The notes under the pieces: model-generated
Told to the model about the DNA's origin: nothing
Database searches by the model: none
What the model saw: only the letters and a program-made list of their open reading frames with translations
Program-made: the position numbers and the translations under genes
Assembly (NCBI GenBank): GCA_029288865.1
Contig: JARIGM010000023.1
Span: 3,039 to 67,038, forward strand
Direction of reading: 5' to 3'
Length of the DNA: 64,000 bases
Source of the DNA: Candidatus Kaiserbacteria bacterium
GTDB lineage: Bacteria > Patescibacteriota > Minisyncoccia > Phycocordibacterales > Phycocordibacteraceae
Part shown: positions 5,902-25,162 of the stretch, in pieces
How the letters are laid out: every line of letters starts with the position of its first letter
Numbering within the stretch: position 1 is the first letter of the stretch

Positions 5902-7056
5902 CTATTTTGCATCCTGCTCAGCTTCGTGGGCCAACCCGATGGCTACGAGTTCCTCGGCAATTGTGCGGGCTGCATCAGAGCCGCCGTATACAGCTCCCTT
6001 CTCTCCCATGCTTTGTGCGAGCTCAGCATCGGTTGCGATGCGGTGAATCTCGGATGCAAGCACGTGCGGCGTCATGTTCCCTTCCTCCAGCACGACGGCA
6101 GCGCCCGTATGTGCATAGCTGTATGCGTTCGTGCGCTGATCGTGACTTATCGATTCTGGAATCGGAATGAGAATCGCCGGCTTCTTCCAGAATGCGATTT
6201 CTGAAATTGAGCCAGAGCCTGCACGCGAGACGATCAGATCCGCTGCACTTGCCGCTTGGCGAAGCGAATCTGCTGCGAAGTACGGCACCGCGTGATAGCG
6301 AGATGCATGCGCACTTTTCTCGAGGATAAGCTTGCTCGTCGGGCCAACCTCAGCGAAGTTGTCTTTGCCGGTCTGATGAATTACGTTCATTGTCTCGACG
6401 AGTTCAGTTAATCCTGCGAGGAGCATGTCGTTGATCTTCTTCGAACCGAGCGAACCTCCCAGCACGAGTACCGTCGGGACAGTGGGATCGAGTCCGAGGC
6501 TCTGCATCGCTTGCTCTTTATCGGTCAGAGCGAGAATCTTGCGCACGGGCGTGCCGATCACGGCAACGTTTTTCTTTGCTTTCGCTGGTACGTCTTGTGC
6601 CGCACTCTCATACGCAACACCGATGCGGTACGCGAATCTCGCCGCAAGTTTGTTCGCGCGGCCCATGCGCGTGTCTGATTCATGGATAATCACGGGAATG
6701 CCGAGATAGTGTGCGGCGAGCACGGTCGGGACGCTCGTATAGCCGCCCTTCGAGAACACAACATCCGGATACAGCTTGAAGAGCGTGGACCAGGCCTTCA
6801 TGATGCCGGAAAGGGTCACGAAGATATCGGTGAAGTTCTGAAAGGAGAAATACCGGCGCACCTTCCCTGCTGGGATCGGGACGAACTCGATGCGCGTGGC
6901 GAAGAGCGCGTCTTGGTCGAATGGCGCGGGCGCGAACTGGAACATCTGCGGATCCACGAGCTGGCTCTCTGCCACGATGTCATGGACCGCTTCTGCGACA
7001 GCGATGATGGGATAGAAATGGCCGCCGGTGCCGCTTCCCGTAAACACGATCTTCAT
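5902..7056 (-). CDS. murG: UDP-GlcNAc:lipid I N-acetylglucosaminyltransferase MurG
   Basis: 384 aa; N-terminal GSGTGGHFYP glycine-rich motif and overall GT28 architecture. Confidence 0.9.
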   Translation of the reverse strand: MKIVFTGSGTGGHFYPIIAVAEAVHDIVAESQLVDPQMFQFAPAPFDQDALFATRIEFVPIPAGKVRRYFSFQNFTDIFVTLSGIMKAWSTLFKLYPDVVFSKGGYTSVPTVLAAHYLGIPVIIHESDTRMGRANKLAARFAYRIGVAYESAAQDVPAKAKKNVAVIGTPVRKILALTDKEQAMQSLGLDPTVPTVLVLGGSLGSKKINDMLLAGLTELVETMNVIHQTGKDNFAEVGPTSKLILEKSAHASRYHAVPYFAADSLRQAASAADLIVSRAGSGSISEIAFWKKPAILIPIPESISHDQRTNAYSYAHTGAAVVLEEGNMTPHVLASEIHRIATDAELAQSMGEKGAVYGGSDAARTIAEELVAIGLAHEAEQDAK

Positions 7057-7089
7057 AATATCTCTACTTTAGCACGGTCAATCTTATAC

Positions 7090-8220
7090 TTACGGAGTAT
7101 TAAATTTGGTATATGCCTTTGTAATCTCGACTTCTTCATTCTGAATTTCTTGTTCGAGCTTTGCCATCTGAGCTCGCTGCTCGTTAGTTATTGTCCCAGA
7201 ACCAATCTGCTTGCTGTAAGTTAGCAGGCTCGATAACGTATTTGCCTGTTTTTGTTGGATAGCAAGAAGATTTGTATATTTTGTTAGGCTATCCAATTGT
7301 CGGATTTGGTCGATATTTGGCAGCTGCTTGCTGTACTCAGTACGAAGTTTAGATATGTCATCAAGCATCTTATTGTTGATATCTTGTCTTGCTTGAATCT
7401 GGTTCTGAAGTGCCTGGATATCTGCATCATCCGGATGCTGTTTTTGCAGGAAGAGTTGATAATCGCTTGAAATATTGCCTGTTAGGGTAGAATACTGTTG
7501 CTCCAATTGGGTTTCGTCCTGCGTAATCTTATTAATTTTTGATGCGTCCAATGCGTTTGTAGCCATGAATGCAATAATCAATACCGGAAGCCCAATGAAA
7601 TGCGCGATTCGAAAATTCGCCTTTGTAGTGGGAGCTTTGAGTGCAAAGACGAAATAAGCTGCAGTTGCCAAATTCACTATTACCCCACTCCATTCATGGC
7701 GGAGACCACTAAGGACGGTTTCCACGAGACTATATGTCAATACTATATAGAAAAGTGGGGTGGGAGCGGTCTTTTTCTTCCTGAAGAGTTGAATTGCTGC
7801 ATACAGAAGTGCAATATTTGAAACAATATCAAAGATTACATAGATGTTTGTTAAGGTAGGACCTGCCATGTAGTCATTTAAAAACCACGTGGTTGATGAG
7901 GATATAAAAAAGAAAAGTATTACGAATCCGAGTGTCCAATTGCGACGTCGGTCCAATGATTCTGTCTCAGATAAGTTGTTTGGCTCCGTCCGCTGAGTTT
8001 CGAGATTGTTGTCGGCATGCTGCCTGCTCCTGATGAAGATGGCTATAAGGAATATTGCAACACACAGGCCCAGGAGATCATTTATCATAAGCGCGTGATC
8101 TATCTGAGGCAGGCTCGTTGGGTGGGCAAATGTAGTGGCCAGTCCATTAAGATTCATGGCAACGAGAAGAATCCCGATTACTCCTGCAATAATTCCTCCC
8201 CAGCGCGAGCTTTTCTTCAT
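7090..8220 (-). CDS. polytopic membrane protein with C-terminal Q-rich coiled coil, hypothetical
   Basis: 376 aa; about 7 TM helices then an LQNQIQARQDINNKM-type coiled coil; AT-rich; first gene of the low-GC island. Confidence 0.5.
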   Translation of the reverse strand: MKKSSRWGGIIAGVIGILLVAMNLNGLATTFAHPTSLPQIDHALMINDLLGLCVAIFLIAIFIRSRQHADNNLETQRTEPNNLSETESLDRRRNWTLGFVILFFFISSSTTWFLNDYMAGPTLTNIYVIFDIVSNIALLYAAIQLFRKKKTAPTPLFYIVLTYSLVETVLSGLRHEWSGVIVNLATAAYFVFALKAPTTKANFRIAHFIGLPVLIIAFMATNALDASKINKITQDETQLEQQYSTLTGNISSDYQLFLQKQHPDDADIQALQNQIQARQDINNKMLDDISKLRTEYSKQLPNIDQIRQLDSLTKYTNLLAIQQKQANTLSSLLTYSKQIGSGTITNEQRAQMAKLEQEIQNEEVEITKAYTKFNTP

Positions 8221-8497
8221 GGATTTATTAGATATCGGTTATGTAATCATTATACAATATACAAATTAAACTGTCTGCCATCGGAAATACTCCTCCTCTT
8301 ACAAGAGGTGGCAGTTTAATCGCATCATCTGGCTCGTGCAGAACGGGCTCTTAGAGTTCGCCAAATATAATAGTCGGGCCATGGACAGCTGCTCTCGTCT
8401 CTGGGTAGTTGATTGTCACTTATCTATTGCATCTAAGAGCTCGTTTTCAAGACATGCTAAACGTTCGGGCTCGTTTTTGGCGTGAGAGGAGAAGTAA

Positions 8498-8944
8498 TTA
8501 GTACTTTTCAAAGCCTCCGAAGCTTGCATCTGGGTTGAACTCACGTAATGAATTCATGATTTTTTTAAGTCCGTACAAACGGTATATCCAGCTATAGAAA
8601 TTGTATTTAATTAAATTATCTTCTTTTTGGAAGACTAGCTGGGTGATAGATTTTTGCAGAGTTGCTGATCTAAGAGTTCCCTGTGGGATCACTACAGTTT
8701 CTCCAAACCATTCATAGATGGTTACGGATTTCATTCGTGTATCTATAATTACCTTTCTCACAGAACCAAGTATCATTCCGGGCAAACATACCAAGGGTGT
8801 GATCCATAAAAACGGATAAAAGAATTGAATATCTCTGTAGCAAATAGCATCTATCAGAACGATAACTGGAAAAAATATCAATACTAATATTGGTGTATAA
8901 AATTGGTAGGAGTGTATCGTATATATTTGTTTATCTTTCCACAT
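8498..8944 (-). CDS. small membrane protein (possible orphan immunity protein)
   Basis: 148 aa, 2-3 TM helices, AT-rich, lies in the RHS toxin/immunity island. Confidence 0.4.
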   Translation of the reverse strand: MWKDKQIYTIHSYQFYTPILVLIFFPVIVLIDAICYRDIQFFYPFLWITPLVCLPGMILGSVRKVIIDTRMKSVTIYEWFGETVVIPQGTLRSATLQKSITQLVFQKEDNLIKYNFYSWIYRLYGLKKIMNSLREFNPDASFGGFEKY

Positions 8945-8947
8945 AAT

Positions 8948-9265
8948 TTAATTGCTGTGCTGCGAATATTGATAATATTGTGCAGTATTGCCAATGTATA
9001 CAGTTCCGACAGCAATTATCCATCCGCCTATAACTATCATTACACCAAAGAAAGTTACGAGGATTCTATAGAAGCCCCATTTTGCTCGCTCTCTACTTCC
9101 CTCTAGAAATATTCCATCCATGAAAGTTTGGAATTTTTTATCATATGCATCGGCCATCGTTTTCCCAAATTCTTTACTATGCCAGATCACATAGAATCCC
9201 AAAATAAATAATGGTATCGAAATTATGATGTGCGTTAGCTGTATTGGGGCTATTGTTATCGGCAT
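8948..9265 (-). CDS. small membrane protein (possible orphan immunity protein)
   Basis: 105 aa, 2-3 TM helices, 3 bp from the previous ORF. Confidence 0.4.
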   Translation of the reverse strand: MPITIAPIQLTHIIISIPLFILGFYVIWHSKEFGKTMADAYDKKFQTFMDGIFLEGSRERAKWGFYRILVTFFGVMIVIGGWIIAVGTVYIGNTAQYYQYSQHSN

Positions 9266-9284
9266 AATAATTAATCCTCTCTAT

Positions 9285-9680
9285 TTATAGGAGAGAGACC
9301 TCTGGCGCTGTGTTAGAGATTATGTCTAACACGTGCGTATCGGTCTTGATTAAATAGTGAATCATTTTCCTGTCTTCGTAAATTCCGTTACTCTCATCAA
9401 TTAGCCATGAGATTAGATTAGAATTAGTTGAGGTACAGAATTGCCATTTGGGGTCTTCGAACTTTGACTTGATCCACATTCTGGTACGACCTGTCTCATC
9501 AATATTTTGATATAAATAATAGCGACGATATTTTATAGTAAGGGTTTTTGATTCATCAGACTCATCCTTAAGCTGAATAACTAATCCTTCATCATCTTGA
9601 TGGACATCTGTAATTAGAAAATTACCCGTAGTCTTTGCTCGGTCTTGCAATAATCTTAGTTCCATCCTTTTGTGTGCCAA
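9285..9680 (-). CDS. putative RHS-toxin immunity protein (orphan paralog)
   Basis: 131 aa; C-terminal half about 70% identical to ORF 15227..15613 (FEDPKWQFC.STNS.LI.WL.EES.GIYEDRKM.HYLIKT), the gene directly downstream of the giant RHS toxin. Confidence 0.5.
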   Translation of the reverse strand: MAHKRMELRLLQDRAKTTGNFLITDVHQDDEGLVIQLKDESDESKTLTIKYRRYYLYQNIDETGRTRMWIKSKFEDPKWQFCTSTNSNLISWLIDESNGIYEDRKMIHYLIKTDTHVLDIISNTAPEVSLL

Positions 9681-9722
9681 CCTGAACCTCGTCCCCCATA
9701 TAAAGACCTTTTCATATTTCCT

Positions 9723-10070
9723 TTAGCTCCTCGCAAGTCTATCTTCTTCCTTACCTTTGTCGGTACTCTCAAACCAATAGAACTCATCCGAATTTATTAC
9801 TCCAGGGTTCTCTACTTGTTGCATAGATGCTAAAAGTTCCTTTCTGAGTTTACCTTTATTCAAAACAGTAGGAGTGTAAGTATTATCAGTGGAGTTATAT
9901 TTTAAACAATTTAATTCTCCAGCATTTACGAGTTCCGCCAGAGTATCTACTATTTCTATTGCTTGCTCCTCCGTCTTTCCTTCAGATGAAGACCAGAACT
10001 CCCAAGAGCCGTATGCATCTTCAGAGCATAATTCAAGGATGTTTGATCGAATTTTGTTCCTGTTTATCAT
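9723..10070 (-). CDS. putative immunity protein for the orphan RHS-CT toxin 10078..11712
   Basis: 115 aa acidic cytoplasmic protein immediately downstream (8 bp) of the RHS C-terminal cassette; the position is that of a toxin/immunity pair. Confidence 0.45.
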   Translation of the reverse strand: MINRNKIRSNILELCSEDAYGSWEFWSSSEGKTEEQAIEIVDTLAELVNAGELNCLKYNSTDNTYTPTVLNKGKLRKELLASMQQVENPGVINSDEFYWFESTDKGKEEDRLARS

Positions 10071-10077
10071 ATATTAA

Positions 10078-11712
10078 TTATAATCCTTCTACTGAAGGGG
10101 TGGAATCTTCCTCATCTATATTAATACTCGGATTGTCTAATGTAGGGTTCCCTGCCAGTGGAAACGGCCCTGACTTAGTACCTTTCTCCGAAACACGTCC
10201 ATATGGTCCCCGTTTAATAGGGTTGGGATCGTTTGGGTTACCATTTTGTATGCGTACTTGGTCGCCAGGCCTATCTGGAACAGGATATCTCGTTCCCTGT
10301 TGGTTACTTGAGGGGTTACCTGGAATTCCCTTCTTTTTCATGATTTCGTCGATCTCCTGGGGTGTTTTGCCGGTTAATTCGCCCGGTGTTGGTAATGCTG
10401 GATAAGCAGAATTTGAAAGTATATGGCTTGGTGTTGAGAAGGAGTTACTTTGTACTCCGCTTACATTCGCCCCGAAATGCACCGCCGGAATATTTATAGA
10501 CTGCACAGCCTGTGCAGCATTAGAAGCTGCTTGTTGGGATGCATGTTGAATTGCCGGATTACTCAGGATTGCCTGGAGAGTAATAAGAACTGCCAATAAG
10601 GCAATGGCTATTGGTATTTCAAATGCAGTAAACTTTCCTGTAGGGTCTTTCTTTGTAATAGGATTATCCTCGGCATATGAGTAACTATTTAAGCTCTGAG
10701 GGTCTTCCAAGATTTGACTCTTAGGATCACCCAAGAAGACTGGGTCTTCAGATAAGAATTGGCCTCTCGCAGAATCCTGGTATCTTGCATTCAAATAGTT
10801 AAGTTGGGTATTCCCGTCATACTGCTCGCCAATAAATTTCCTCTTTGTTCCGGTATACGTTCCGGCAAGCGTATCGGTACGGAGTGCGCCATACGGGTAG
10901 TAGTGGAGTGCTTCGTTAAGCAGTCCGGCGCTGTCTGTGAGTGCATTTGCACCGCCCAAGTGATCTGGATGGACATAGTAAGTGGAGGTAGTGGTTCCCA
11001 CGGTCGGGGTCGTAGTTGCAGGCTTAAAGGCAGCAATTGCCATACTCCAATTCTGAGTTGCAGCGCCGGTATACGTGTCGGAGATAGAACCAGCGGCTCC
11101 CGCAACTTGATAACTTGCCGCACCTAAAGTCGTTGAGGCAACGTTGTTGAACAGCGAGGTGCGATTTGTAGTAGCAGTGGTGGTTGAGTTTCTGCTGAGT
11201 GTTGCCACCACGAGATCGCCCGTTAAACGCGTGGTAACCGAAGCGGTGGGACTGCTCGTAGTACCTATAGCTGTTGAGGTAGCATCAAGGCCTGATTGAC
11301 TTGCTCCCGAGTAATCCGAAAGCCCAAACTTAAGCGCATCAGTCGCCCCATTAACAGTAACTGAGATGGTGTTAGTACCGGATGGCGGTGCAACCAGATA
11401 CCAGAGCTCAGAAGCCATAGTTCCGCTTAGGCTGCTTGCGGCTTTAATCAGCGGCATGCCCGCATAGGTAGCTGAGGAGATCGATCCCGTGCCGGCTATA
11501 TGCTGCAATATATCGGCCGTGAGGACCAAAAGGCGGTTAGTACCAAACGAAGTAGTATGAGTCCAGCTCTTCGTCGTGGTCGCGCTTGCTCCGAGGGTGA
11601 AGTTCGTCGTGACTGCATTTAACAGTAGTGTCGAAGTCGCGGCTGTCGTGGTACCGACCGTATTCGGGCCATATCTATCAGGAGTTAGCTGGTAAGACAA
11701 TGCCCCATCCAT
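10078..11712 (-). CDS. orphan RHS C-terminal cassette (T/S-rich domain + RHS core end + divergent C-terminal toxin tip)
   Basis: 544 aa; residues about 20-390 are about 75% identical to residues about 2290-2660 of the 2780-aa RHS protein ([16 protein letters not shown]...[10 protein letters not shown]...DNPITKKDPTGK), then a TM segment and a different tip; own TG-TATACT promoter upstream. Confidence 0.8.
   Translation of the reverse strand: MDGALSYQLTPDRYGPNTVGTTTAATSTLLLNAVTTNFTLGASATTTKSWTHTTSFGTNRLLVLTADILQHIAGTGSISSATYAGMPLIKAASSLSGTMASELWYLVAPPSGTNTISVTVNGATDALKFGLSDYSGASQSGLDATSTAIGTTSSPTASVTTRLTGDLVVATLSRNSTTTATTNRTSLFNNVASTTLGAASYQVAGAAGSISDTYTGAATQNWSMAIAAFKPATTTPTVGTTTSTYYVHPDHLGGANALTDSAGLLNEALHYYPYGALRTDTLAGTYTGTKRKFIGEQYDGNTQLNYLNARYQDSARGQFLSEDPVFLGDPKSQILEDPQSLNSYSYAEDNPITKKDPTGKFTAFEIPIAIALLAVLITLQAILSNPAIQHASQQAASNAAQAVQSINIPAVHFGANVSGVQSNSFSTPSHILSNSAYPALPTPGELTGKTPQEIDEIMKKKGIPGNPSSNQQGTRYPVPDRPGDQVRIQNGNPNDPNPIKRGPYGRVSEKGTKSGPFPLAGNPTLDNPSINIDEEDSTPSVEGL
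10400..11700. repeat. about 1.3 kb duplicated segment: orphan RHS cassette is paralogous to the 3' part of the main RHS gene (about 15900..17200)
   Basis: The protein alignment is near-collinear at about 75% identity across the T/S-rich and core-end regions; this gives a substrate for homologous recombination and tip switching. Confidence 0.7.
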
Positions 11713-11742
11713 AAGATGAGGCTTCCCACCAGTATATCACAA

Positions 11743-11761
11743 ATATTCCATTTTGGAATAT
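11743..11761. promoter_or_regulatory. perfect palindrome ATATTCCA-N3-TGGAATAT in the divergent promoter region between the XRE gene and the orphan RHS cassette
   Basis: Seen directly in the sequence; 8-bp arms and 3-bp spacer; also overlaps a TGGAATA direct repeat. Confidence 0.5.
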
Positions 11762-11787
11762 CCCAATATGGAATACAGCCTATAGGT

Positions 11788-12006
11788 ATGAAGAAATCCA
11801 TTCATACCGATGAACAGGCAATGTTTGTGAAGCGACTTCGCAAAGCACGGATGGAGGCTGGCCTTACACAAGTAGAAGCTGCTGCGAAACTGGGAGCTAG
11901 TCAGTCTTGGATATCAAAAATTGAACTCGGTGAGCTTCGGGTTGATGCAATATCACTTAATCGCATTGCAAAACTCTACGGTAAACCTGTTAGCTATTTC
12001 CTGTAG
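11788..12006 (+). CDS. XRE-family helix-turn-helix transcriptional regulator
   Basis: 72 aa from the internal ATG; LTQVEAAAKLGASQSWISKIELGE is a classic Cro/C1 HTH; the palindromic operator lies just upstream. Confidence 0.75.
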   Translation: MKKSIHTDEQAMFVKRLRKARMEAGLTQVEAAAKLGASQSWISKIELGELRVDAISLNRIAKLYGKPVSYFL

Positions 12007-12152
12007 CCAGACAGAAGAAGCCGAGTGGTCGGTCTTCTGTCAGCCGGACTAGTCCGGGCTTCGCCATGCACTTTGCGGTTACGCAAATCCAATGGCACGC
12101 CTTCCGGCCGCTGCCTACCCTATCGCACTTCAGGTGTTCTGCGAAGGGGCAA

Positions 12153-12335
12153 CTAATGTGCTACTTTAACACGGCGTTTTATAGGATTAGGAGATATAAG
12201 TACTTCACGTCCGGTCTTTCGAGAATGTGCGGTATGAGCAATCTTAAAGCCCTGCACTTGCCTCTTTCCGTATAGCTCTCGAACATACGGCGTATCGTCA
12301 TATGTCATTACCCAATCAAGAATCGAGGTATCCAA
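12153..12335 (-). pseudogene. C-terminal remnant of a Dam-family (D12 class) N6-adenine DNA methyltransferase
   Basis: 60 aa ORF; VMTYDDTPYVRELY...REVLISPN resembles the Dam C-terminus (V.ISN.DT...RE.Y...); no N-terminal catalytic region is present. Confidence 0.45.
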
Positions 12336-12414
12336 AAAGTTTGCCAGATTCTCGTGATTCTCCTTCGGCTATGACAACGAAGAATACACTCTCAAAGATA
12401 AACAGATTGAGCTA

Positions 12415-12810
12415 TTGAAACAGATTCCCCTTCTGCACAAGAAAGAGTTGGTTGACGTAAGTCTCGCGCAGTATTGCGAATCTACGAAAGAGCAATTTAA
12501 GACCCTGAAGGATTTTGAGTCTAGAAGGCAATTTCTACTGGATCACATTGATAGGGTTATAGTTGCGAAGAATTCAATATCTATTTACGGCTATGTTCCC
12601 GTTCGACTTAAGGTATATGAAGATCCAGATCAGCCAAATGGTGCAGGTAAGATTTGGTTTTGCATTGAGAAAGAGCTAGATCGCACTCGCTTAGTCGCCA
12701 AGTTGCAAAATAGAGACAAGAAACAAGATGTGTTAGACGGTACAAAAATTACTTGGAATGAATACAAACAATTATCTGAAATCAGAACTGGAGGTTTATA
12801 TACGCTCTAA
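12415..12810 (+). CDS. hypothetical protein or gene fragment (no ATG; TTG start in track; frame open back to 12358)
   Basis: 131 aa ORF; in-frame upstream extension FSFGYDNEEYTLKDKQIELLK with no start codon suggests a truncated gene. Confidence 0.3.
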   Translation: MKQIPLLHKKELVDVSLAQYCESTKEQFKTLKDFESRRQFLLDHIDRVIVAKNSISIYGYVPVRLKVYEDPDQPNGAGKIWFCIEKELDRTRLVAKLQNRDKKQDVLDGTKITWNEYKQLSEIRTGGLYTL

Positions 12811-12841
12811 ATTATCTATCTGCTGTTACGTTAATGCGGTT

Positions 12842-13117
12842 CTAGAGTTTTATCCCAGATAAGTAAATTCCACCGATAAGAACGAGACCAAGCCCAATCG
12901 CTAAAGCATAGCTGGTAGCAGTCATAAACATGCCGTCAGCCATTACGTCACTACCTTGAGAATTGTGGTAGAGATTCTTTTTAATCCAGCCTACAATTCC
13001 TGTTTTCATACCAGGATACCAATTAAAGTATGCAACTACCGACAACAAGAGAATGCCAACCAAGGTCACTACTACTGGTTGGTAATAAACAATTAATTGG
13101 TTGAATAAATTTTGCAT
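12842..13117 (-). CDS. two-TM membrane protein, putative immunity protein for RHS-CT fragment 13119..13970
   Basis: 91 aa, two hydrophobic helices, 1 bp downstream of the toxin fragment. Confidence 0.45.
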   Translation of the reverse strand: MQNLFNQLIVYYQPVVVTLVGILLLSVVAYFNWYPGMKTGIVGWIKKNLYHNSQGSDVMADGMFMTATSYALAIGLGLVLIGGIYLSGIKL

Positions 13118-13118
13118 A

Positions 13119-13970
13119 TTAGTTCTTTTTGTTATTAGTACTCTTATTGGAGGATGATTGCAAGGTGTTTACCAACTGAGTAAGGAGATGAACTTCCTGG
13201 GTCAGGAGACTTATCACATCCGATACCCCACTTACCCTACCTCCTGCGAGTGTAGGTGCTACGTTCATGGCGAAGTTTCCTGCACTTGAATAGGCAGCAG
13301 ATGGATTCTGATTATTAATAGATCCAACAGTGTTTATGGCTGAAGGGATTCCAAGCGCAGAACTACCAGCAAGGAAAGCATACCCAGCGGATTGAACCAG
13401 TCTACCTGCAAGGAAGTAAGTTCCTACTCCTGCTCTTAGAGAAGTAATCGCCACTGTTGAAGTAAGCGCCGCATCAGCTACAGGAGCCGAGAATAAGCCT
13501 ACCACTGCACCTGTTCTATATGGATGATCAAGCGCGGTACCCCAAGCTGGATTCACCTGAGGCAAATAAACTGTCGCATTATTAATCTCACCATTAAAAC
13601 TAGCCCAAGATTGTTGTCCTGTGAGAAATTCTTGATACCACAATCCCGATGGATCAGATTTTGAAATCGGATTGTCTCTACCGTAAGAATACGAATTTAA
13701 TGTTTGCGGGTCAGAAAGAACCGATGTTTGATCCGTCTGAGTGAGACTCTGTAATCTCTGTTGGTTTCCAATTGCTAGGAATGTAGGGTCCTCCGAAAGG
13801 AACTGGCCACGGGAAGGGTCTTGATACCTAGCGTTGAGATAGTTCAAATTCGAACTGGCGTCATATATCTGTCCAATATAAATGGGGCTACCGACACCTG
13901 CTCCTATTTTTGAGTAGTGTATACAGCCTTCCTCATTTGCATCCAAGACTCCATTTTCAAGCCACACCAA
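13119..13970 (-). CDS. orphan RHS C-terminal fragment with Gly/Ala-rich (membrane-active?) toxin tip
   Basis: 283 aa; [21 protein letters not shown]...NSYSYGRDNPISKSDPSGL matches the RHS core end and DPxGL motif of the main RHS, followed by a G/A/S-rich tail; TTG start, truncated N-terminus. Confidence 0.7.
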   Translation of the reverse strand: MVWLENGVLDANEEGCIHYSKIGAGVGSPIYIGQIYDASSNLNYLNARYQDPSRGQFLSEDPTFLAIGNQQRLQSLTQTDQTSVLSDPQTLNSYSYGRDNPISKSDPSGLWYQEFLTGQQSWASFNGEINNATVYLPQVNPAWGTALDHPYRTGAVVGLFSAPVADAALTSTVAITSLRAGVGTYFLAGRLVQSAGYAFLAGSSALGIPSAINTVGSINNQNPSAAYSSAGNFAMNVAPTLAGGRVSGVSDVISLLTQEVHLLTQLVNTLQSSSNKSTNNKKN

Positions 13971-14082
13971 GCGTTCGAAGTCGGTCTCAACCTGAGAAGG
14001 AGCGAGAGTGCTGAAGCGGGTTTCCAGATTAAATTCAGAAGGTTGTTTTGGGTTTTGGAGGAAATTTACACTCCATTGTAAT

Positions 14083-14724
14083 TTATGACATTTTCGTCGA
14101 AGAATGTGGAATTCCTAGTGCAAATTGCAGCTTCAGGCCTTCTGGTAAAGCTATGGTTTGAGCTCCTACTCGTAATATTTTGTGCTCAAAATCTCCAAGA
14201 TCAATATCCAGCTGGTGACCAGGCTTAGTTAAATCTGCGGCGGGATCCATAAATGCATTTCCTTCCTCATTAATAAAAGAAAAGACTATAACCATAGGCT
14301 CTGCTATCTGCTCGTTACTCAAAATCAAATCGCCTTCCTCAGGTTCTACTATAGTTAGTGCACTAGTATCCCGAAAATAAAGACTGAATAGGTGTCTGTT
14401 GATCGGATGTTCAACGTTAAAATGGATACGTAAAATGCCAGACTCTTCCCTCCCTTCTTGTTTTATCTTCAGTGTACGCTTTTCAAAAACGTACGATATT
14501 TCAAGACTCTCTCCAATTGGCACATTCTTTGTCACCGTTGGTGAACTAAAATCAGCTTCGTGTATTGATCCTTTGAATTGCCGTGGAAAAGTCTGGAATA
14601 AGTCCAGTTTATTATTGAACGATATTTTTAGTTCATAATCCCCGCCATGTAGCGGCATTATCAGAAGAGTGCCAATAAGCGCTCCATTCTTTAAAACTAG
14701 TCGACTTTTCCTAAGTGGGTGCAT
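14083..14724 (-). CDS. hypothetical protein (island cargo)
   Basis: 213 aa, AT-rich, no recognisable motif. Confidence 0.4.
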   Translation of the reverse strand: MHPLRKSRLVLKNGALIGTLLIMPLHGGDYELKISFNNKLDLFQTFPRQFKGSIHEADFSSPTVTKNVPIGESLEISYVFEKRTLKIKQEGREESGILRIHFNVEHPINRHLFSLYFRDTSALTIVEPEEGDLILSNEQIAEPMVIVFSFINEEGNAFMDPAADLTKPGHQLDIDLGDFEHKILRVGAQTIALPEGLKLQFALGIPHSSTKMS

Positions 14725-14733
14725 GACTAAACC

Positions 14734-15024: not shown

Positions 15025-15226
15025 ATGGATTATTTTAATACTAATTTACTTAACTGGCTAACAAGGTTCGAGAGTTGACTCAAAATACCGCCGAGTCGTT
15101 GTAAATTTCCATTTGCGATATTGTTCGTCACTCCCATACCTACTCTCAAACCCCAAGAGAATAGTGTCCTCCATTTGCATCCCGTATTAGATGTAGCTCG
15201 TTTGATACGTTTACGAGTTTAATTTC

Positions 15227-15613
15227 TTATTTGATTATAGTGACTTTAGGCTCAACTTCGGAAATCACGTCTAGCACGTCTGTCCATGTCTTAATTAAAT
15301 AGTGGGTCATCTTTCTATCTTCGTAAATACCGTCACTTTCTTCTTTTAACCATTTAATTAAGCTGGAATTAGTTGATACGCAGAATTGCCATTTAGGATC
15401 TTCGAACTCAGCATGAGCCCATAGTCTTATACGCCCGGATTCATCTACATTTTTATATAATAAATATTGAGTAAAGGTTATTAAAATAGAAATAGAGTTC
15501 TCAGACTCTGCTTTAAGAAGAATCTTAAGCCCCTCGTGATCTTGATGTACATCAATGATAAAGAATTCCCCCACGAGGTCTTTCACGGGTGTCCAGTTAT
15601 TAAAAGTATCCAT
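15227..15613 (-). CDS. putative immunity protein of the giant RHS toxin
   Basis: 128 aa from the internal Met (MDTFNNW); the start is 1 nt after the RHS stop; paralog of 9285..9680; the longer 160-aa version in the track would overlap the RHS gene by 95 bp. Confidence 0.5.
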   Translation of the reverse strand: MDTFNNWTPVKDLVGEFFIIDVHQDHEGLKILLKAESENSISILITFTQYLLYKNVDESGRIRLWAHAEFEDPKWQFCVSTNSSLIKWLKEESDGIYEDRKMTHYLIKTWTDVLDVISEVEPKVTIIK

Positions 15614-15614
15614 A

Positions 15615-18600
15615 TTATTCATTATACCGAGTCTTTTCGATATCACCATTTGGTTTCTGTACCTCAAGTGTCGGACGTCCTTCTTTGCTCTGCGGCCGTA
15701 CGTTGACATTACTTCCGTCTTCTAGTTGACCAGCAGTAGTTCCATTTGGATATGTCTTAACATTCGTAGGATTAAGCTTTTTAAAATCTTGCAATGCTTG
15801 CGGGTAACCGCCATCCTTCTCTTTAAATGAAGTATCCCCGCCCAAGCTATTTTTTGCGAAATTAATATTTGTCGAAGGGATTGAATTTGAGGAGTAGGAC
15901 GGTACACCTTGAGTTGCAGGCGTAGAGAATGGATTGCTTTGAACTCCACTTACGGTACCTCCAAAATGCACTGCGGGAATACTTATTGAGGAAGCTGCTT
16001 GAGACACTCCATAACTTGCCTGCTGTAGCGAATGCTGAACTTGAACATTCGAGAGTATTGCAAGCAAGGCATATGCAGCAGCGAGCAGACCCACAATTAG
16101 TACCCCTTGAGGGCTTACAATGGCCTGCTTTCCATCAGGATCTTTTTTGGTTACCGGGTTATCATTCGCATAGCTATAACTATTCAAACTCTGTGGATCT
16201 TGTAAATTCTGTTGAGAAGGATTCCCCAAGAATACTGGATCTTCGCTCACAAACTGTCCTCTTTGTGGATCCTGATATCTAGCGTTCAAGTAGTTCAGAC
16301 CAGTAGTCCCGTCATACTGCTGCCCAATATATTTCCTCTTGGTTCCGCTATACGTTCCGGCAAGCGTATCGGTACGGAGTGTGCCATAAGGATAATACTG
16401 GATCGATTCATTAAGAAGGCCGGAACTGTCGGTAAGAGCATTCGCTCCACCGAGGTGATCTGGATGAACATAATACGTGGACGTGGTAGTACCATTTGTT
16501 GGCGTTGTAGTTGCAGGCTTAAAGGCAGCAATTATCATGCTCCAGTTTTGGGTTGCCGTACCGGTGTATGTATCGGAAATAGAGCCAGCTGCGCCTGCAA
16601 CTTGATAACTCGATGCTGCAAGAGTAGTAGAAGAGACGTCATTAAAGAGCGAAGTGCGGTTCGTGGTTGCGGTAGTCGTCGAGAACCGGCTTAGAGTTGA
16701 CTCCACAAGATCTCCGGCTAAGTGGCTCGTGACCGAAGCGGACGGATTGCTGGTGGTACCGGTTGCTGTTGACGTAGCGTCAAGCGGAATGAATTGGTTC
16801 ACGCCCGTGTAGTCGGCAAGAGAGAATTTGAGAGAGTCAGTCGTACCGCCAACCGTCACAGATACGGTATTTAATCCCGAAGGCGGAGCAACGAGATACC
16901 AGAGCTCACTCGCCATGTTCGAGGCACGAGTCGCTACCGCCTTGACAAACGGAATACCCGCATAGGTTGCTGAAGTGATAGCGCCTGTGCCAGCTACATG
17001 CTGGAGAATGTCTGCAGTAAGCACAAGGAAGCGGTTATTTCCAAAAGAGGTTGTGTGAGTCCACGACTTAGTGGTGGTGGCCGTGTTGGCTATGGAGGAA
17101 ATGTTAGTACTTGTAGCATTCAGGAGTGGTGTCGAAGTCGCGGCTGTCGTGGTGCCAATCGTATTCAGCGTGGCAACGAGAAGTCCGTTTGCGTAGATGT
17201 TCTTTGTTATGGTCGGACTCGCGCCTGCCGTGCTGCTGTAATACTTATTGGGATAGAACGTGGTTATTCCACCGTCCGTGGTCTGGACTCGGCTACCTGC
17301 ATAATCGTACAAGTACGTGGAAGTTGCTGAACCCTTCCCTACTTGTGCTAATTGATTGAGATAGTTCCAAACATAGTTGTATGTACCATCTGACGTCAGG
17401 TTTCCGTTATTGTCGTAGGCAAGCGTGCTGGTTGCCAATCCATACACGATAGACGTCGGTGCATGCGGATTCGCATAGTTGGTACCTATATTGCCTTGAT
17501 AATAATAGCCTCCTCGATCAGAACTCGTCGCAATGCCTCCAAGCGGATTGTAGGTGTATGAGCGGATGTATGGTGTCTGGAATCCTGCAAGCGTTGAACT
17601 TGCGAGAGTAAGTCGATTGAGCGGATCGTAGGTAAATGCTGTTTGCTCTGATCCATTCACGTCATCGAGAATGCTCGTGATATTTCCTGCTGGATCATAG
17701 GTGTAATGGAAACTCTGGATGTGTGTACCGTCATCAGCCATTGTAAAGTGATCCGTGCCACTCGACCACGGACTCGGATTGCCTGCACTATCCCAGAGGC
17801 GCATGCGGTAATAATATGTCGTATGATCGAGCGCGAGCGGAGTGCCCGTATAATACAAGTCCTGGGTCTGATTTCCTGCTGATGTCGTTGGTGAAAGGCT
17901 GAGTTTGCCGCTATCCCATAATGGGCTGGTGAAGCTGCTGCTTGTCGCGGTCTGAATCTGGTAGTACACCGCAGTGTCTCCGAGGTCGGGATCATTATAT
18001 TGAGCGCTAAATCGAGGTGAAATATCTGTTACATTTATCGGATTAGTCTGATCTTCTGCCATGAGCTGTGTAGTGGTACCGGGCGCCACGTTTGGCAAGC
18101 TGTAGGATATTTCTAGGTAAGGGTCTTGTGACGTACCTGAGTTACGGGAGCTTGAAAAGGTTACTCGGGAGAATAGCCAATGAAAGTTATTATTGACGGC
18201 CTCATTGTCTGTCGAGTCGTGGCCTTCTCGTAAGCAGAGTTTCGTATACCCAGTGGTTGAAATCCAGCTCTTCCCCGCCGTTGTGAGAGGATAGGCTTGG
18301 TAGGTATTTACGGTCGAGCTTGCTATAGGCGTATCAATTGATCCCTTTGTCGGATTAGTGATAGCATCGCCACAAGCGCTTATATCAGAATTACTGAGTG
18401 TAGCCGGAGAAGCTTCGAAACCTTGATATACATTTATGTTCGAATATGCATCATTAAAAGCATTATCGGTGCTTTGAACATATGCATAGAGGGTTGATGA
18501 ACTGATTATAGCGTTATCTGGTAGTGCTGAAGTATCTATCGGCACAAAACTCCGCACGATGCTGAGATACCCGCTACCACTCGCGAACGCCTGAGAATCA

Positions 18601-21600
18601 ACTTGCAAGTAGAAGCCGCTATACTCAGCGTTTACGCCTGTGGTATCTGCATGCTGTGTTTCCCAAGAACCCGGATATGGCTGAGTCTCTACTTCCCCGT
18701 CTCCCGGTCCACCGAAGTTACTAAAGGTAAGGTCGGCTCGGACAGGATACTGTGCCTTAGCAAGCCAGCTGTACGGGATCAGCTTGGTGACATAGATACC
18801 ATCTGTCTTCAGTTGATAAGTTACTGATATCGGAATCTGATTGTTCGGATCGTCTTGGTTTGAGCCCTGCGCGCTCGGTTGCCAGATATACGCGAGTATG
18901 TCTTTTCCGCTGAGGATAGTCGCCTCGTTTGTGGTTGTAATAGTTTTCGCATCGCTCAAAAGTTTACCGTCTACCAGTATGTCAAGGCTGCCGGTGCCGC
19001 TTGCGGCTGCAAGCTTGAACGTTATTGCGTAGTTTGTAGCGGTGCCGGACTGTGTGGGTTCCTTCGTAAGAACGACATCCTTCTTCAAATACGAGTCGGT
19101 AGATGTGATTTCCAAATTAGCTCCACTGCCAAGCGCACCGGTATAGCTGAAGAGTGCACTTCCGTCTGGGTTTGTAGTTTCAATCGGCGCGACTGTCTTT
19201 GCTTTTGAATCCGCAAACGAGACCGTCATAGTTCCGGATTGGCCCGTGTAGGTAAAAAGATTAGAAGCGGAGCTTTTTGCTATTTTCGCTTGGTATGCGG
19301 CCTGCGTGATGTTTGTCGTGGTCTTCGCATCCATAATCTTGGTAAATGAACTGAGCGGCTGGAATGCACCTGAGGCATCCTTGGCAAATTGCGGACCAGT
19401 ATGAAACTCCGTCTTGTACATATGATCGCCATTGGATGTGTGGCCGAGAAGGTAGGTCTTGGTATTCTCCGTCCGCGCGTTCTGTATTTCTATTGGATTT
19501 GTCGGTGATGCGAGCGACATATCCTGCATCGGAGAGCTTTGTACTGCAAGAGCATTCTGCTGCGTCATCTGCATCGGAGCGAAGAGATGGCCAGTACCGG
19601 GGCCGACAGTCTTCCGATACGTCAAGCGATAGAGCGCGTTCGGATTATACGTGTTGAAAGTCTCGACTGAATTGCCGTCTCGTTGATATGTAATCTGTCC
19701 GTCTGGACCATACTCGATATCAGCAATGATGGCCTTCGTCGTGGTCGCAGGCTGTTCTAATTCGCTAATGGAACCGAGTTGCCCCAGGTTATTGTAAAGA
19801 TAATAAACAACTGCATTGTCAGGATAGGTTTGGGTGATGGTATTCCCTTGTAGGTCGTATCCATACTTGGTGACAAATGAACCATTGCCTACCGCCTCTG
19901 TCTCTTTATTGGTCCGACCGAGTGGATCGTAGGCATATGTAGTAGTGGCTGAGTTAGTAGCAACACTGCAGAGTTGACCGATTCCGAAGCTGCATGAGTC
20001 ATAGGTAAAGATCTTCTCTGTGCCTGGTATGACTGTGTAGTCCTCGGTCACTTCTCTGTTTAAGGCATCATAGGTGTACTGAATCGTCTGTGATTTAGGG
20101 TCTACGACGGATGTCTTGTTACCTGCTGCATCATATGTGTAGGTCCAGGTACCAAAGCTTGAATCACCTGGCGCGTGGAGATCCTGAGCTGTTAATTCTC
20201 TACCCAAACCGTCATAGGTAAAGAAGCGAACATCACCCGACGCATCGGTTAGAGAGGTGAGATTATTGTTGCCATCATATGCATATTGGGTACTGTAAGC
20301 CGAAGCACCATTATGCTCGATTACATCTATGAGGTTTGTATAGATATCATAGACAAGATCTTTCGAGTGACCGTTGGCATCTGTTATCGTGGTGGTCGCG
20401 ACATTATACGCGTAGGTCGTACTTCCCACTGAATTAGTAATTGATTTCGCCCGATATATTGGGTCGTAGGAATAGACGGTGTACAAGTTCGCGTTTGTAG
20501 TAGGTGTCGTACTACCTGCTCCGTTACTGAAATACGGCAACGATTGCTTGCTTAAAAGCCCAAGACTGTTGTACTGGTAATCCTTTGTCGGATAATCACT
20601 GCTTCCGAAGCCCGGACCAAGACGGGATTGGAATATGCGGCCTAGGCCATCCAGATATGAATATTCCAATGTGCTGGTCGCAGCTGAGAGGTATCGCGTC
20701 TTGTATAAGTATGGGAATCCGGTATCGACATAGGTATAGCGGGTCTGGAGCACAGGTGCTGAAGTGCTTGCCGTCGAATCTGGCTGATATTGCAACAGTA
20801 TTCGACCCAGGCCGTCATACACGTTTGATGAAGTGCTCCCGTTTGGGTCGGTCGTGGTCGCAACCTTACCTGTAGCGTAATCATAAGATGTATATGTCTT
20901 CTGGTTCAGTGGATTGGTAGTAGTCGCTACATACAGACCGTATGGGTCATACATAAACGAAGTCGTGTTGCCCCGAGCATCCACTTGGTTCGTCGGTAAG
21001 CCAAATGCATTATATGCAGAAGTCGAGCTCGCATACATTGGAGTACTCGTTCCAGATACCCAACGCGCTACTTTAGTAAGGTTACCAAGCACTGCGGTAC
21101 CGAGTGGACTCGAATCGTAATAGTACTGCTGCTCATTTACTTTATTTCCAGCCTGATCCTTTTTCGTTTTGTCGGATTGAAGAACGATATAGGGAGCTGT
21201 ACTCGAGGCATATAAATTCGTAGTGGTGTACGAGTCGTTGCCCACGTCGGTGAACGTTCCGTCGTCATTGCCATTTACCAGACCCCAATTGGTTGAGCTT
21301 GCTATGACGCCAGTTCCAGTGTCATAAGCATTCGTGGTTGCAGTGTCTCGATGGGAGGTGCCACCGTCGTACATGGAATCAAGCTGCTGAAGTAATTCGA
21401 CAAAAGTCCGTCCTCCACTGAGGCTCGCCATATCCCACTTGAAGATGTCTTTCTTGTACAGGTTGTTTGCGTTATCGTATGTCTCTATGCGGTAGGCTTT
21501 ACCTATCTTTGATGGGTCGTCCTGATACTGACCATGCGAAGTATCGGAGGTACTATTCCCTTGATCGTAATAGGTGTTCGTAACATTCCCGGCCGGGTCA

Positions 21601-23957: not shown

Positions 23958-24052
23958 GGGCTTACCTATACGCTACCCCGCGCATCTCTGAAGCTGTACT
24001 GTTCAGCTGGGGATAACGTTGGGCTAAAATACCACGTGTTGCAATCACCCGT

Positions 24053-25162
24053 CTATTTCCCTTTCTTTGGGCGGTTGGCGGCGATGTTGATGATGATCCC
24101 GACAGAAATGAGTGCAGCGAGAAGCGCCGTACCGCCCTGGCTCATGAACGGAAGCGGAAGACCTGTTAGTGGTAAGACGCCAAGCATCGCGCCGATATTA
24201 AGGAATGCAGAGATGGTGATGAGAAGCGAGAGGCCGGTCGCGCTCAAAGAGCCAAAGACGCTTGAGGCCTCGGCGGCGATCATAAATCCGCGCGTTATGA
24301 AAGCTATGAAAAGCGCGATCAAGATAACGGTCCCGATGAACCCGAACTCTTCCCCATAGACAGCAAAGATCGAGTCTCCATTGGGTTCAGGCAAATAATT
24401 GAACTTCTGCACGCTCTGGCCGTAGCCGCGGCCGAGCAGTTGTCCTGACCCGATCGCAATAAGAGATTGTTGGATCTGATACCCACTCGAAAGTGCGTGA
24501 TGCGAAGGATGGATGTATGTGTTGATGCGATTCAAGAGATAGGGGCGAATCGCCACGAGTAGTGCGAGCCCTGCGACCGCTGTGACGAGGATGATCGCGA
24601 AATCACGCCATGGCGCGCCCACGAGGAAATACAGCGCTACTGCCGTCGCACCCATGACGAGCGTCGTGGACGTGTTCGGTTGCGCGATAAGCAGGAGTGA
24701 TGGAATTCCCACGATAAGCGCGAATGGCAAGAGGCCATGTCGCATGTCGCGAATCTTCTTCTTCGCATGCGCAAGGTACGAAGAAAGCATGAGAATCACG
24801 CTAATCTTGAGGAATTCTGCCGGTTGCACCGTGAGCGGACCGATCTGAATCCAGCGGGTCGCACCGTTCGTGTGGTAGCCCAGGTGCGGAATGAACACGA
24901 GCATCGTGAGGAGTATGGAAAAGATATAGAACGGCAGTACGGACTTCTCTATCCAATGTGGCGGAACGAATCGTAACGCGATAACCGCAACTACGCCCGG
25001 AATAAGGCCGAGGCATACCTGTGTGATAGCGATGTGCCACGGCGTCTCCCCTGCTCGAGCAAGGAGGCCAAGCGAGGCGGAAGTAAACATTGCGAGACCG
25101 CCCACCACGAGGATCGTGACGACGGTAGCGAAGATGCGATCTCCAAAGAGGCGTTCAAACAT
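24053..25162 (-). CDS. ftsW: SEDS-family peptidoglycan glycosyltransferase FtsW/RodA
   Basis: 369 aa, about 10 TM helices, FtsW/RodA/SpoVE family pattern; lies between mraY and murG (after the island). Confidence 0.85.
   Translation of the reverse strand: MFERLFGDRIFATVVTILVVGGLAMFTSASLGLLARAGETPWHIAITQVCLGLIPGVVAVIALRFVPPHWIEKSVLPFYIFSILLTMLVFIPHLGYHTNGATRWIQIGPLTVQPAEFLKISVILMLSSYLAHAKKKIRDMRHGLLPFALIVGIPSLLLIAQPNTSTTLVMGATAVALYFLVGAPWRDFAIILVTAVAGLALLVAIRPYLLNRINTYIHPSHHALSSGYQIQQSLIAIGSGQLLGRGYGQSVQKFNYLPEPNGDSIFAVYGEEFGFIGTVILIALFIAFITRGFMIAAEASSVFGSLSATGLSLLITISAFLNIGAMLGVLPLTGLPLPFMSQGGTALLAALISVGIIINIAANRPKKGK

Follow-up and report, generated by a model that had tools for sequence, protein, structure and literature searches.

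By its sequence, the open reading frame (ORF) at 10078..11712 on the minus strand is an orphan rhs-CT module, which corresponds to the 3′-terminal part of an alternative RHS allele. According to our preferred reading, to which we assign a probability of roughly 60%, the module comprises a working immunity gene and a stored alternative toxin tip, and represents an old, 5′-truncated allele. The orphan lies downstream of the main RHS gene, both on the minus strand, in an RHS polymorphic-toxin island (about 7057-24000) that is inserted between ftsW and murG. All coordinates refer to the window, i.e. the whole stretch of 64,000 nt that was analysed. Spare orphan RHS tips are common next to RHS genes.

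Anatomy of the orphan

The features of the two RHS genes are as follows.

15615..23957, minus strand: main RHS gene, 2780 aa, SpvB/FG-GAP/TcdB_midN/RHS repeats
15915..17165, minus strand: shared block, main RHS side, inside 15615..23957
10078..11712, minus strand: orphan RHS C-terminal ORF, 544 aa, intact
10426..11664, minus strand: shared block, orphan side, aa 17-429 (main RHS aa 2265-2681)
11665..11712, minus strand: 16 unique N-terminal codons (MDGALSYQLTPDRYGP) without homology to the main RHS
11017..11634, minus strand: T/S-rich insert domain, aa 27-232, all-beta, 15 strands
10636..10902, minus strand: RHS repeat-associated core domain, aa 271-359, TIGR03696
10426..10632, minus strand: post-cleavage linker, aa 361-429, 53% aa identity to the main RHS
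10135..10398, minus strand: putative toxin domain of ~85 aa, aa ~439-526
10081..10134, minus strand: 18-aa C-terminal tail (NPSINIDEEDSTPSVEGL) following the toxin domain

The orphan ORF starts with an ATG, which is preceded by an in-frame TGA 27 nt upstream, and contains no internal stop codons or frameshifts. Decay of the cassette, which the earlier note had named as a possible objection, was thus not found, and all residues that are invariant in the tip family are present. An identical protein is included in the NCBI-derived data (P0001), and a search with the whole orphan revealed no relatives in the genome contigs. A hydrophobic segment is absent from the N-terminus (KD(19) of at most 0.93 over the initial 60 aa), so that the orphan has no signal peptide. 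It also lacks the RHS shell, and retains the core end, the cleavage motif and the post-cleavage helix.

The T/S-rich insert follows the last RHS strand and precedes the core end. Its AF2 model has a pLDDT of 92.5 and a pTM of 0.90, and comparison with the PDB gave weak jelly-roll-like matches, nothing stronger. The insert is common to many RHS relatives, and some proteins contain more than one copy of it (two or more matches each in P0003 and P0004). The core domain scores 54.6 bits with TIGR03696, i.e. above the curated cutoff of 32.5, and ends in NPITKKDPTGK, a PxxxxDPxG-type cleavage motif. It is followed by the linker, which is conserved in the main RHS too; a hydrophobic helix (aa 358-388) lies in this region.

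The block shared with the main RHS gene

BLASTP aligned orphan aa 17-429 with main RHS aa 2265-2681 (305/418 identical, 73%, E 2e-162), and the earlier description of about 370 collinear residues at about 75% identity therefore holds, with a slightly longer block. Collinear similarity is also present at the nucleotide level: BLASTN matched 10633-11665 with 16128-17166 (71.9% over 1047 nt, E 4e-156), and the direct-repeat families D1, D2, and D5 are offset by a constant 5495-5501. When all of the 412 codons in common are aligned, 68% of the nucleotides and ~74% of the amino acids are identical. The homology extends ~70 aa beyond the DPxGK cleavage motif, across the hydrophobic linker, so that the differing tip comprises about 115 aa (430-544) and not ~150 aa, as had been proposed. 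That the tips differ was borne out: no BLASTP similarity to the main RHS was detected beyond orphan aa 429, and a distant relationship of the main tip to the orphan tip family was rejected (hhalign probability 0.4%).

The shared block has a dN/dS of 0.07-0.08, a dS >2 and a pS of 0.72. The saturation of synonymous sites suggests that the module is old, and a recent intragenomic duplication was rejected for the same reason. We infer that purifying selection shaped the orphan at a time when it still belonged to a functional gene.

The earlier note had proposed that an unusually long duplicate favours tip swapping by homologous recombination. The length was corroborated (~1.24 kb), but the identity is low (68-72%), and the longest identical runs between orphan and main gene are 33, 27, and 25 nt. 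In Salmonella, recombination between main gene and orphan was shown experimentally for 522 bp at 95% identity (PMC3967940). A past exchange between main and orphan blocks is nevertheless indicated by a four-taxon mosaic analysis with the pair at locus L001. The informative sites in columns 18-180 split 11:4:2, favouring a grouping of the window's main gene with the L001 orphan, whereas those in columns 180-365 split 1:10:0, in favour of a grouping by genome (Fisher p = 0.002 for the contrast). A drop in main-versus-main identity at the 3′ block was considered as a sign of cassette replacement and was not found (61% in the body, 67% in the block). L001 and L003 have the same layout, i.e. main gene, immunity gene, and then a short RHS ORF with a following ORF; the L001 orphan has a different start point and no adjoining recombinase element.

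A widespread family of putative toxin tips

An exhaustive HMMER search (E≤1e-3) yielded a tip family of 219 representative proteins, in which the tip is almost always located at the extreme C-terminus. The exhaustive search was needed to reveal the family, as a word-index search with the tip alone retrieved one relative only; for the locus scans, a 9-sequence tip alignment was used. The family motif is GK.PEEID..G...P.R.GGTRYP.P..PG[DE]QVR..GNP.DPNP.K.GPY.R.S..G..S.P.PL.GNPTL, and the orphan tip has kept every invariant residue. The number of departures from the family consensus is 9 in the orphan as well as in the main gene, i.e. there is no rate asymmetry. The 18-aa tail is atypical, as 127 of 156 tip-family relatives end within 3 aa of the domain.

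The family tip forms the C-terminus of full-length RHS proteins, of short RHS-like ORFs, and of one protein with a non-RHS N-terminus (L044), which looks LXG-like by eye only. Fusions of the tip to a full-length gene, which had been suggested as a test, thus exist at the family level, i.e. in P0124 (2414 aa) and in the frames of >2088 aa at L005 and L006. Short tip fragments also occur in other genomes, some of them without a start codon (125 aa at L009, an open frame of 74 aa at L013).

The AF2 model of the orphan tip has a pLDDT of 88.6 and a helix-plus-sheet layout. No Pfam-A family matched the tip even at E≤10, the NCBIfam search of the orphan returned nothing at E≤0.01 except the core domain, and no usable match was obtained with PDB sequences or by Foldseek against PDB and BFVD. 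A match to the PDB sequence Lin0431 (E 0.008) was rejected, because it consists of two short segments in swapped, non-collinear order. Assignments of the tip as HicA-like or BECR/RelE-like would be based on the helix-plus-sheet layout alone, and support for them was not found.

Immunity genes and their start signals

Three features downstream of the orphan are relevant.

9723..10070, minus strand: likely cognate immunity gene, encoding 115 aa; its start lies 7 nt downstream of the orphan stop codon
10077..10082, minus strand: perfect TATAAT that overlaps the orphan stop codon, with its end 6 nt upstream of the immunity ATG
9285..9665, minus strand: probable orphan immunity gene; the gene that directly follows the main RHS tip is its paralogue (61% aa identity)

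Of 54 occurrences of the tip in other loci, 14 have a homologue of 9723..10070 directly on their 3′ side; these include MAGs of Sungbacteria, Saccharibacteria, Paceibacterota, Parcubacteria, and Verrucomicrobiota. By conserved adjacency only, 9723..10070 is the likely cognate immunity gene of the orphan tip. The 115-aa protein has no match to Pfam-A or NCBIfam models. No toxin domain is found upstream of 9285..9665, and a word-index search retrieved two members only of the presumed immunity family of the main gene, both on this contig. Homology between the two immunity proteins was looked for and rejected.

TATAAT boxes precede both immunity genes, and the distance of 6 nt to the ATG of 9723..10070 is typical of leaderless-type starts in this genome (see below). 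The immunity genes appear to carry their own leaderless-type promoters within the last codons of the toxin genes.

A neighbouring mobile-element remnant and the origin of the orphan

At its 5′ end, the orphan adjoins the decayed remains of a serine-recombinase element that includes an XRE regulator.

11744..11775, no strand assigned: 13-bp inverted repeat TATTCCATNTTGG with a 6-bp spacer, candidate operator, flanked by the orphan ATG and the divergent HTH gene
11788..12006, plus strand: XRE-family HTH gene, divergent, 72 aa counted from an internal ATG
12415..12810, plus strand: C-terminal fragment of a large serine recombinase, a mobile-element remnant

The 13-bp repeat has three matches with at most one mismatch, compared to 0.24 expected, and two exact copies form the palindrome. 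The HTH gene matches HTH_31 and HTH_3 of Pfam as well as transcriptional regulators of PHROG; no homologue was found in the 53 other loci examined, which include other RHS loci. The recombinase fragment matches the C-termini of intact recombinases of 560 and 571 aa that are located beside RHS and immunity genes at L005, and also a fragment at L006.

It is possible that the orphan originated as the remnant of a second, tandem full-length RHS gene, which would have lost its first ~2250 codons as the serine-recombinase/XRE element inserted or decayed. The homology to the main gene stops abruptly at 11664, against the element remnant, the recombinase fragment and the end of the upstream cassette array are in convergent orientation, and the RHS-immunity-recombinase layouts at L005 and L006 are alike. 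An orphan block that is an old allele formerly under purifying selection also agrees with this origin. However, no remnant of an RHS shell was found elsewhere in the window, displacement by incoming cassettes accounts for the same layout, and the L001 orphan starts elsewhere, without such an element adjoining. We regard the tandem origin with reserve. It is opposed to a tip displaced from the main gene, and is compatible with the functional part of our preferred reading.

Start signals upstream of the orphan

The earlier note had proposed that the orphan is expressed from its own promoter and ribosome binding site. Both motifs were found at the proposed location.

11731..11739, minus strand: extended -10-like motif TGATATACT, the TATACT of which ends 18 nt before the orphan ATG
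11722-11727, minus strand: GGGAAG, upstream of the orphan ATG

A functional role as proposed was not corroborated. The motif TGNTATACT occurs three times in the window, compared to 1.2 occurrences expected by chance, so that its presence alone is weak evidence, and a promoter scan upstream of the orphan found no -35 partner. For comparison, the starts of 27 housekeeping genes in the window were analysed. An SD-like core precedes only 2 of them, which is below the value for random positions (10.8%), whereas in 15 of the 27 genes a -10-like box ends at a distance of 4-14 nt from the start codon, versus 15% in the control. Leaderless-type starts are thus predicted for this genome, and Shine-Dalgarno (SD) sites are nearly absent. 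As SD sites are essentially unused, the GGGAAG probably plays no role, and the -10-like box of the orphan is outside the spacing of 4-14 nt.

In Salmonella, orphan Rhs-CTs have internal promoters and behave as type II toxin-antitoxin (TA) modules (Starsta et al. 2020, PMC7043789). The promoter directly precedes the PxxxxDPxGL-coding region, and a nearby CTG serves as the translation start (PMC7043789). The idea that the orphan may be expressed without the delivery part, with the immunity protein as antitoxin, is similar. However, an internal start of this type near the cleavage motif was rejected here, as no in-frame ATG/GTG/TTG with a -10-like box at 4-14 nt was found inside the orphan. The sole candidate lies where the 544-aa ORF begins, and has the atypical distance between -10 box and ATG.

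These data bear on an alternative, namely that the orphan is expressed alone from the TGaTATACT promoter, repressed by the XRE protein bound to the palindrome, and forms a TA-like pair with the 115-aa protein. In this case, the acting form would be the 544-aa product or a self-cleaved C-terminal fragment, inside the producer. The extended -10-like motif and the ATG are present, the palindrome covers the position at which a -35 box would lie, and the HTH gene is divergent; in addition, the ORF is intact without excess departures from the family consensus, and Salmonella offers a precedent. That a 1.6-kb ORF with an ATG is intact beside clearly decayed neighbours may reflect selection on its protein product, which would favour independent expression. 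The spacing, the missing -35 box, a motif that is weakly above chance, the essentially unused SD sites, and the lack of an internal leaderless-type start near the cleavage motif argue against it. Moreover, the HTH gene, which has no homologue in the other loci, is part of a decayed mobile-element remnant, and its juxtaposition with the orphan may be accidental. Taken together, independent expression is unlikely.

In another alternative, the toxin-coding part could be a functionless relic, intact by chance, and only the immunity gene or genes would matter. The orphan has no signal peptide, shell, or promoter at the usual spacing, an atypical tail follows its toxin domain, tip fragments occur elsewhere, some without a start codon, and a lone paralogue of the presumed immunity gene of the main gene is located nearby without an upstream toxin domain. 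Yet 544 codons without a stop or frameshift, the conservation of all family-invariant residues, and the lack of rate asymmetry relative to the main copy make a relic improbable; the dN/dS of 0.08 points in the same direction, though most of the divergence may predate orphaning.

It is very doubtful that the headless 544-aa fragment is itself a regulated product, which would be transcribed from a captured XRE/recombinase switch region, repressed via the palindrome at 11744-11775, and self-cleaved to free a membrane-inserting helix and a toxin of undescribed fold, acting in the producer (addiction or growth control) or upon release by lysis, instead of awaiting recombination.

Discussion

Our preferred reading, i.e. 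a working immunity gene combined with a stored tip, assigns different roles to the two parts of the module. The immunity gene would be the part that most likely works today, probably transcribed from the TATAAT 6 nt before its ATG, and it would protect against neighbours that deploy the same tip. The toxin-coding part would be a stored alternative warhead, which recombination in the shared block of ~1.2 kb could fuse to the full-length gene. Such events look rare now, because the block is only about 70% identical. The 5′ truncation of the module would have taken place beside the now-decayed element with the serine recombinase fragment and the XRE regulator.

The main gene resembles the BC-type RHS cocoon of ABC toxins (TcB/TcC), which was reportedly described by Busby et al. 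in 2013, with teneurin-like YD shells as a comparison. It has SpvB, FG-GAP, TcdB_midN, RHS repeats, and a core end with an aspartyl-protease-type motif, whereas the orphan carries the plug/cleavage part and none of the shell. According to the framework that Zhang et al. are said to have put forward in 2012, polymorphic toxin C-terminal domains are common to RHS and LXG/T7SS toxins. The tip fits this framework in that it occurs on RHS proteins of several architectures and on the non-RHS protein of L044, and is linked to a small immunity gene. Neither the tip nor the immunity protein matches a Pfam-A or NCBIfam model, and the predicted fold has no significant Foldseek match (PDB, BFVD).

The orphan is also similar to the enterobacterial rhs-CT/rhsI modules (Poole et al. 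2011, PMC3150448; Koskiniemi et al. 2014, PMC3967940), i.e. a 5′-truncated rhs piece downstream of a full-length rhs gene that contains part of the core and the PxxxxDPxG-type motif, followed by a different C-terminal toxin and its own, here predicted, immunity gene. In both cases, the block in common with the main gene could mediate fusion. The block described here is longer (about 1.24 kb versus 522 bp) and far more diverged (about 70% versus 95% nucleotide identity), and it also takes in the all-beta insert and, beyond the cleavage motif, about 70 further aa. The main protein has a signal peptide and is of the SpvB/FG-GAP/TcdB type, whereas the enterobacterial Rhs proteins are linked to T6SS PAAR/VgrG, and the host is probably a CPR (Patescibacteria) bacterium.

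The finding is real but ordinary in kind, as orphan modules of this type are known, and the current understanding of RHS systems is unchanged by it. The exchangeable unit at this locus begins well upstream of the cleavage motif, including the insert domain and the core end, and extends about 70 aa downstream of it. The tip and its neighbour define a putative, widespread toxin/immunity pair (219 representative clusters) that has no model in the copies of Pfam-A and NCBIfam searched. The own promoters that the immunity genes appear to have would be a simple means to uncouple immunity from toxin expression. Orphan toxin/immunity cassettes are a stock for changing contact weapons and the resistance to neighbours, and this example would extend the picture to a probably CPR-type genome with Sec-signal, TcB/TcC-like RHS proteins.

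Gene content of the RHS island

The 544-aa RHS C-terminal ORF is intact and is a genuine orphan rhs-CT/immunity module; elements of this kind are well known (PMC3150448, PMC3967940). Judged by the nearest relatives, the host is probably a CPR bacterium. It lies in a low-GC island of 17 kb (~7057-24000; GC 0.36-0.50 vs 0.51-0.54 in the flanks) between ftsW (24053..25162) and murG (5902..7056). The island is co-oriented with the cell-wall/division cluster that it splits, and its genes of interest are all on the minus strand; murD was not found between mraY and ftsW in the window.

Features of the RHS island, beginning with the main RHS gene
15615..23957, minus: main RHS gene, 2780 aa, first gene of the island
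15227..15613, minus: 128-aa ORF, starting one base past the main RHS stop codon
14734..15024, minus: acidic 96-aa ORF, TAAAAT box 7 nt before the ATG, no family match
14083..14724, minus: 213-aa ORF, no family match; lies with the 96-aa ORF between the main cassette and orphan 1
13119..13970, minus: orphan 1, a short fragment of the RHS core end carrying a tip of its own, 283 aa, TTG start
12842..13117, minus: two-TM ORF, 91 aa, directly after orphan 1
11788..12810, plus: stretch between the orphan 1 cassette and the 544-aa orphan
12415..12810, plus: C-terminal fragment of a large serine recombinase, next plus-strand ORF after an HTH gene
10078..11712, minus: the 544-aa orphan ORF
9723..10070, minus: 115-aa ORF, next after the orphan
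9285..9665, minus: 126-aa ORF, next after the 115-aa ORF
8948..9265, 8498..8944 and 7090..8220, minus: three ORFs of membrane-associated look, judged by eye only

At the N-terminus of the main RHS protein is a hydrophobic signal or anchor; its domains are SpvB, FG-GAP, TcdB_midN, RHS-repeat and Ig_Rha78A_N, plus an RHS-associated core domain at aa 2521-2609. Orphan 1 carries positions 19-76 of that core domain and a Gly/Ala-rich tip (C-terminal toxin domain). The 91-aa ORF is likely a membrane immunity protein for this second, shorter orphan, and the 96-aa and 213-aa ORFs are possibly further immunity genes. A tblastn search with three RHS pieces revealed no other RHS remnants in the window.

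The block shared with the main gene

The extent of homology between orphan and main protein described in the earlier note was close to our result: BLASTP aligned orphan aa 17-429 with main aa 2265-2681 (305/418 identities, E 2e-162). At the nucleotide level, 10633-11665 matched 16128-17166 with 71.9% identity over 1047 nt (BLASTN), and a repeat finder recovered collinear pieces at a constant offset of ~5.5 kb. Orphan codons 1-16 have no counterpart in the main gene, and the reading frame is closed by a stop 27 nt before the ATG.

The block begins with a T/S-rich segment (orphan aa 27-232; 11017..11634, minus strand), confidently predicted as an all-beta domain of 15 strands (AlphaFold, pLDDT 92.5), for which PDB matches were weak and jelly-roll-like only. 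It constitutes an insert of ~200 aa between the last RHS strand and the core end, with main aa 2275-2482 as its counterpart. The insert is missing from some relatives (protein P0095, locus L003), and related proteins P0003 and P0004 contain at least two matches each. The core end (TIGR03696, aa 271-359) terminates in the cleavage motif NPITKKDPTGK and is followed by ~70 residues that share 53% aa identity with the main protein and include a strongly hydrophobic helix (aa 358-388). A different tip, as noted earlier, is thus present, but it is shorter than had been estimated, because homology extends beyond the cleavage site and divergence is confined to the last ~115 residues.

A tip family with a conserved partner gene

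Searches of Pfam, NCBIfam and PDB sequences returned nothing for the tip. A family of 219 proteins (E<=1e-3) emerged when 1.84 billion representatives were searched exhaustively with HMMER. The matching ~85 residues are at the extreme C-terminus, with three or fewer residues after the domain in 127 of 156 cases. All invariant residues of the family are present in the orphan, whose 18-aa tail after the tip is unusual. The predicted fold consists of two helices, two strands, a short helix and a third strand (pLDDT 88.6); Foldseek searches of PDB and BFVD gave no significant hit.

Proteins carrying the tip are 55 to 2414 aa long. One (P0124) has the SpvB/FG-GAP/TcdB_midN/RHS architecture of the main gene, two (P0156, P0187) are DUF6531-RHS proteins, and the carrier at locus L044 has a non-RHS N-terminal region that is LXG-like by eye alone. 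Genome and metagenome scans placed the tip in Sungbacteria, Saccharibacteria, Paceibacterota and Parcubacteria MAGs, and also in Alphaproteobacteria, Verrucomicrobiota, Gemmatimonadales and Actinobacteria. At loci L005 and L006 it is part of reading frames of >2000 aa, and at most other loci of short ORFs. ORFs of ~575-600 aa at L003 (4546..6264; = L018 4593..6386) and L017 (46..1851; = L016) start with a signal-peptide-like N-terminus and also contain a small number of RHS repeats, the core end, a linker of hydrophobic character and a tip of this family. They are conserved between two organisms, and the L003 copy follows a large RHS gene. Instead of being silent orphans, they may act as secreted mini-RHS toxins in their own right.

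The 115-aa ORF begins 7 nt past the orphan stop codon. Of 54 occurrences of the tip, 14 have a homologue of its product directly 3′ (tblastn; 33-44% identity in the genome-scan loci), among them nearly all loci with a tip at least 58% identical to that of the orphan and enough 3′ sequence to judge. Conserved pairing across such distant phyla is characteristic of toxin/immunity pairs, and the tip and the 115-aa gene are predicted to form one; among the comparative results, this is the strongest.

The 126-aa protein is unrelated to the 115-aa protein. Its gene is a paralogue (61% aa identity) of the 128-aa gene directly after the main tip; it is the second gene past the orphan and is not preceded by a toxin domain. 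Neither paralogue was matched at other tip loci, and a word-index search of 5.8 billion proteins found the family solely on this contig. The 126-aa ORF has the look of a solitary additional immunity gene against a main-type tip.

Age of the block and past exchange

Codon alignment of the shared block gave a pS of 0.72, i.e. saturation (dS >2), and a dN/dS of 0.07-0.08. With synonymous sites saturated, the copy is not a recent duplicate; it diverged over a long period while coding for a constrained protein. Compared with the consensus of nine relatives, orphan and main gene depart at nine sites each, and these equal numbers give no sign of orphan decay.

RecA-type exchange is expected to be rare across a block that is ~30% diverged, in which the longest identical runs are 33, 27 and 25 nt. 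The pair of main and orphan sequences was compared with that of the related locus L001, i.e. four sequences only. In the first two-thirds of the insert domain, informative sites are distributed 11:4:2 in favor of pairing window-main with L001-orphan and window-orphan with L001-main, and two one-residue gaps fit the same pairing. In contrast, the remainder of the block groups by genome (10:1:0 informative sites; Fisher p = 0.002 for the difference between the two parts). Only 2 of 28 informative sites back a grouping by position, in which main pairs with main and orphan with orphan. The mosaic indicates past exchange despite the ~30% divergence, and, with four sequences, would fit intragenomic swaps and between-lineage transfer alike. 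In Salmonella, the sole experimentally proven case, recombination occurred across 522 bp at 95% identity (PMC3967940); the block described here is more than twice as long, but ~30% diverged.

A mobile-element remnant upstream

A divergent 72-aa XRE-type HTH gene (from 11788, plus strand) faces the orphan ATG, and a 13-bp inverted repeat, TATTCCATNTTGG, with a 6-bp spacer lies between them (11744-11775), a plausible candidate operator. An HTH homologue was found in 0 of 53 fetched loci, other RHS loci included. Between the HTH gene and the recombinase fragment is a weak DNA-methyltransferase fragment; the 5′ end of the orphan thus abuts a decayed mobile element, which may have caused the truncation and accidentally supplied the ATG and the -10-like box.

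The recombinase fragment is convergent just after the orphan 1 cassette. At L005, intact 560-aa and 571-aa recombinases (6678..8360, 8357..10072) are convergent immediately after the RHS and immunity genes, a fragment at L006 (6642..6983) has the same place after the tip and immunity pair, and a fourth match is at L019. A recombinase-bearing element may favor the tip-immunity end of these RHS loci as its site, or may itself deliver that end.

Start-site usage and expression

The earlier note had proposed that the orphan has its own promoter and ribosome binding site. Both sequences are present, TGATATACT at 11731-11739 and GGGAAG at 11722-11727, but the start grammar of the genome is of the leaderless type, so that the box, which ends 18 nt from the ATG, is misplaced, and GGGAAG probably plays no role. 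An SD-like core was found in 2 of the 27 housekeeping genes of the window, compared with 10.8% in a random control, and in 15 of 27 a -10-like hexamer ends 4-14 nt upstream of the start codon (control 14.7%), which points to leaderless or near-leaderless transcripts. Exact TGATATACT occurs three times in the window (1.2 expected), and the promoter scan reported no -35 partner for it. An internal start of the Salmonella type (PMC7043789) was not found in the orphan.

Perfect TATAAT boxes, both within the last codons of toxin ORFs, end 6 nt upstream of the start codon of the 115-aa gene (10077-10082, minus strand) and 7 nt upstream of that of the gene after the main tip (15621-15626, minus strand), which suggests that the immunity genes are expressed on their own. 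The 544-aa product might be expressed independently, but the start-site grammar lends this no support, and without signal peptide and shell the product would be barred from the export route of the main protein. The parts of the module most likely to be at work are the immunity gene and, over evolutionary time, the stored tip.
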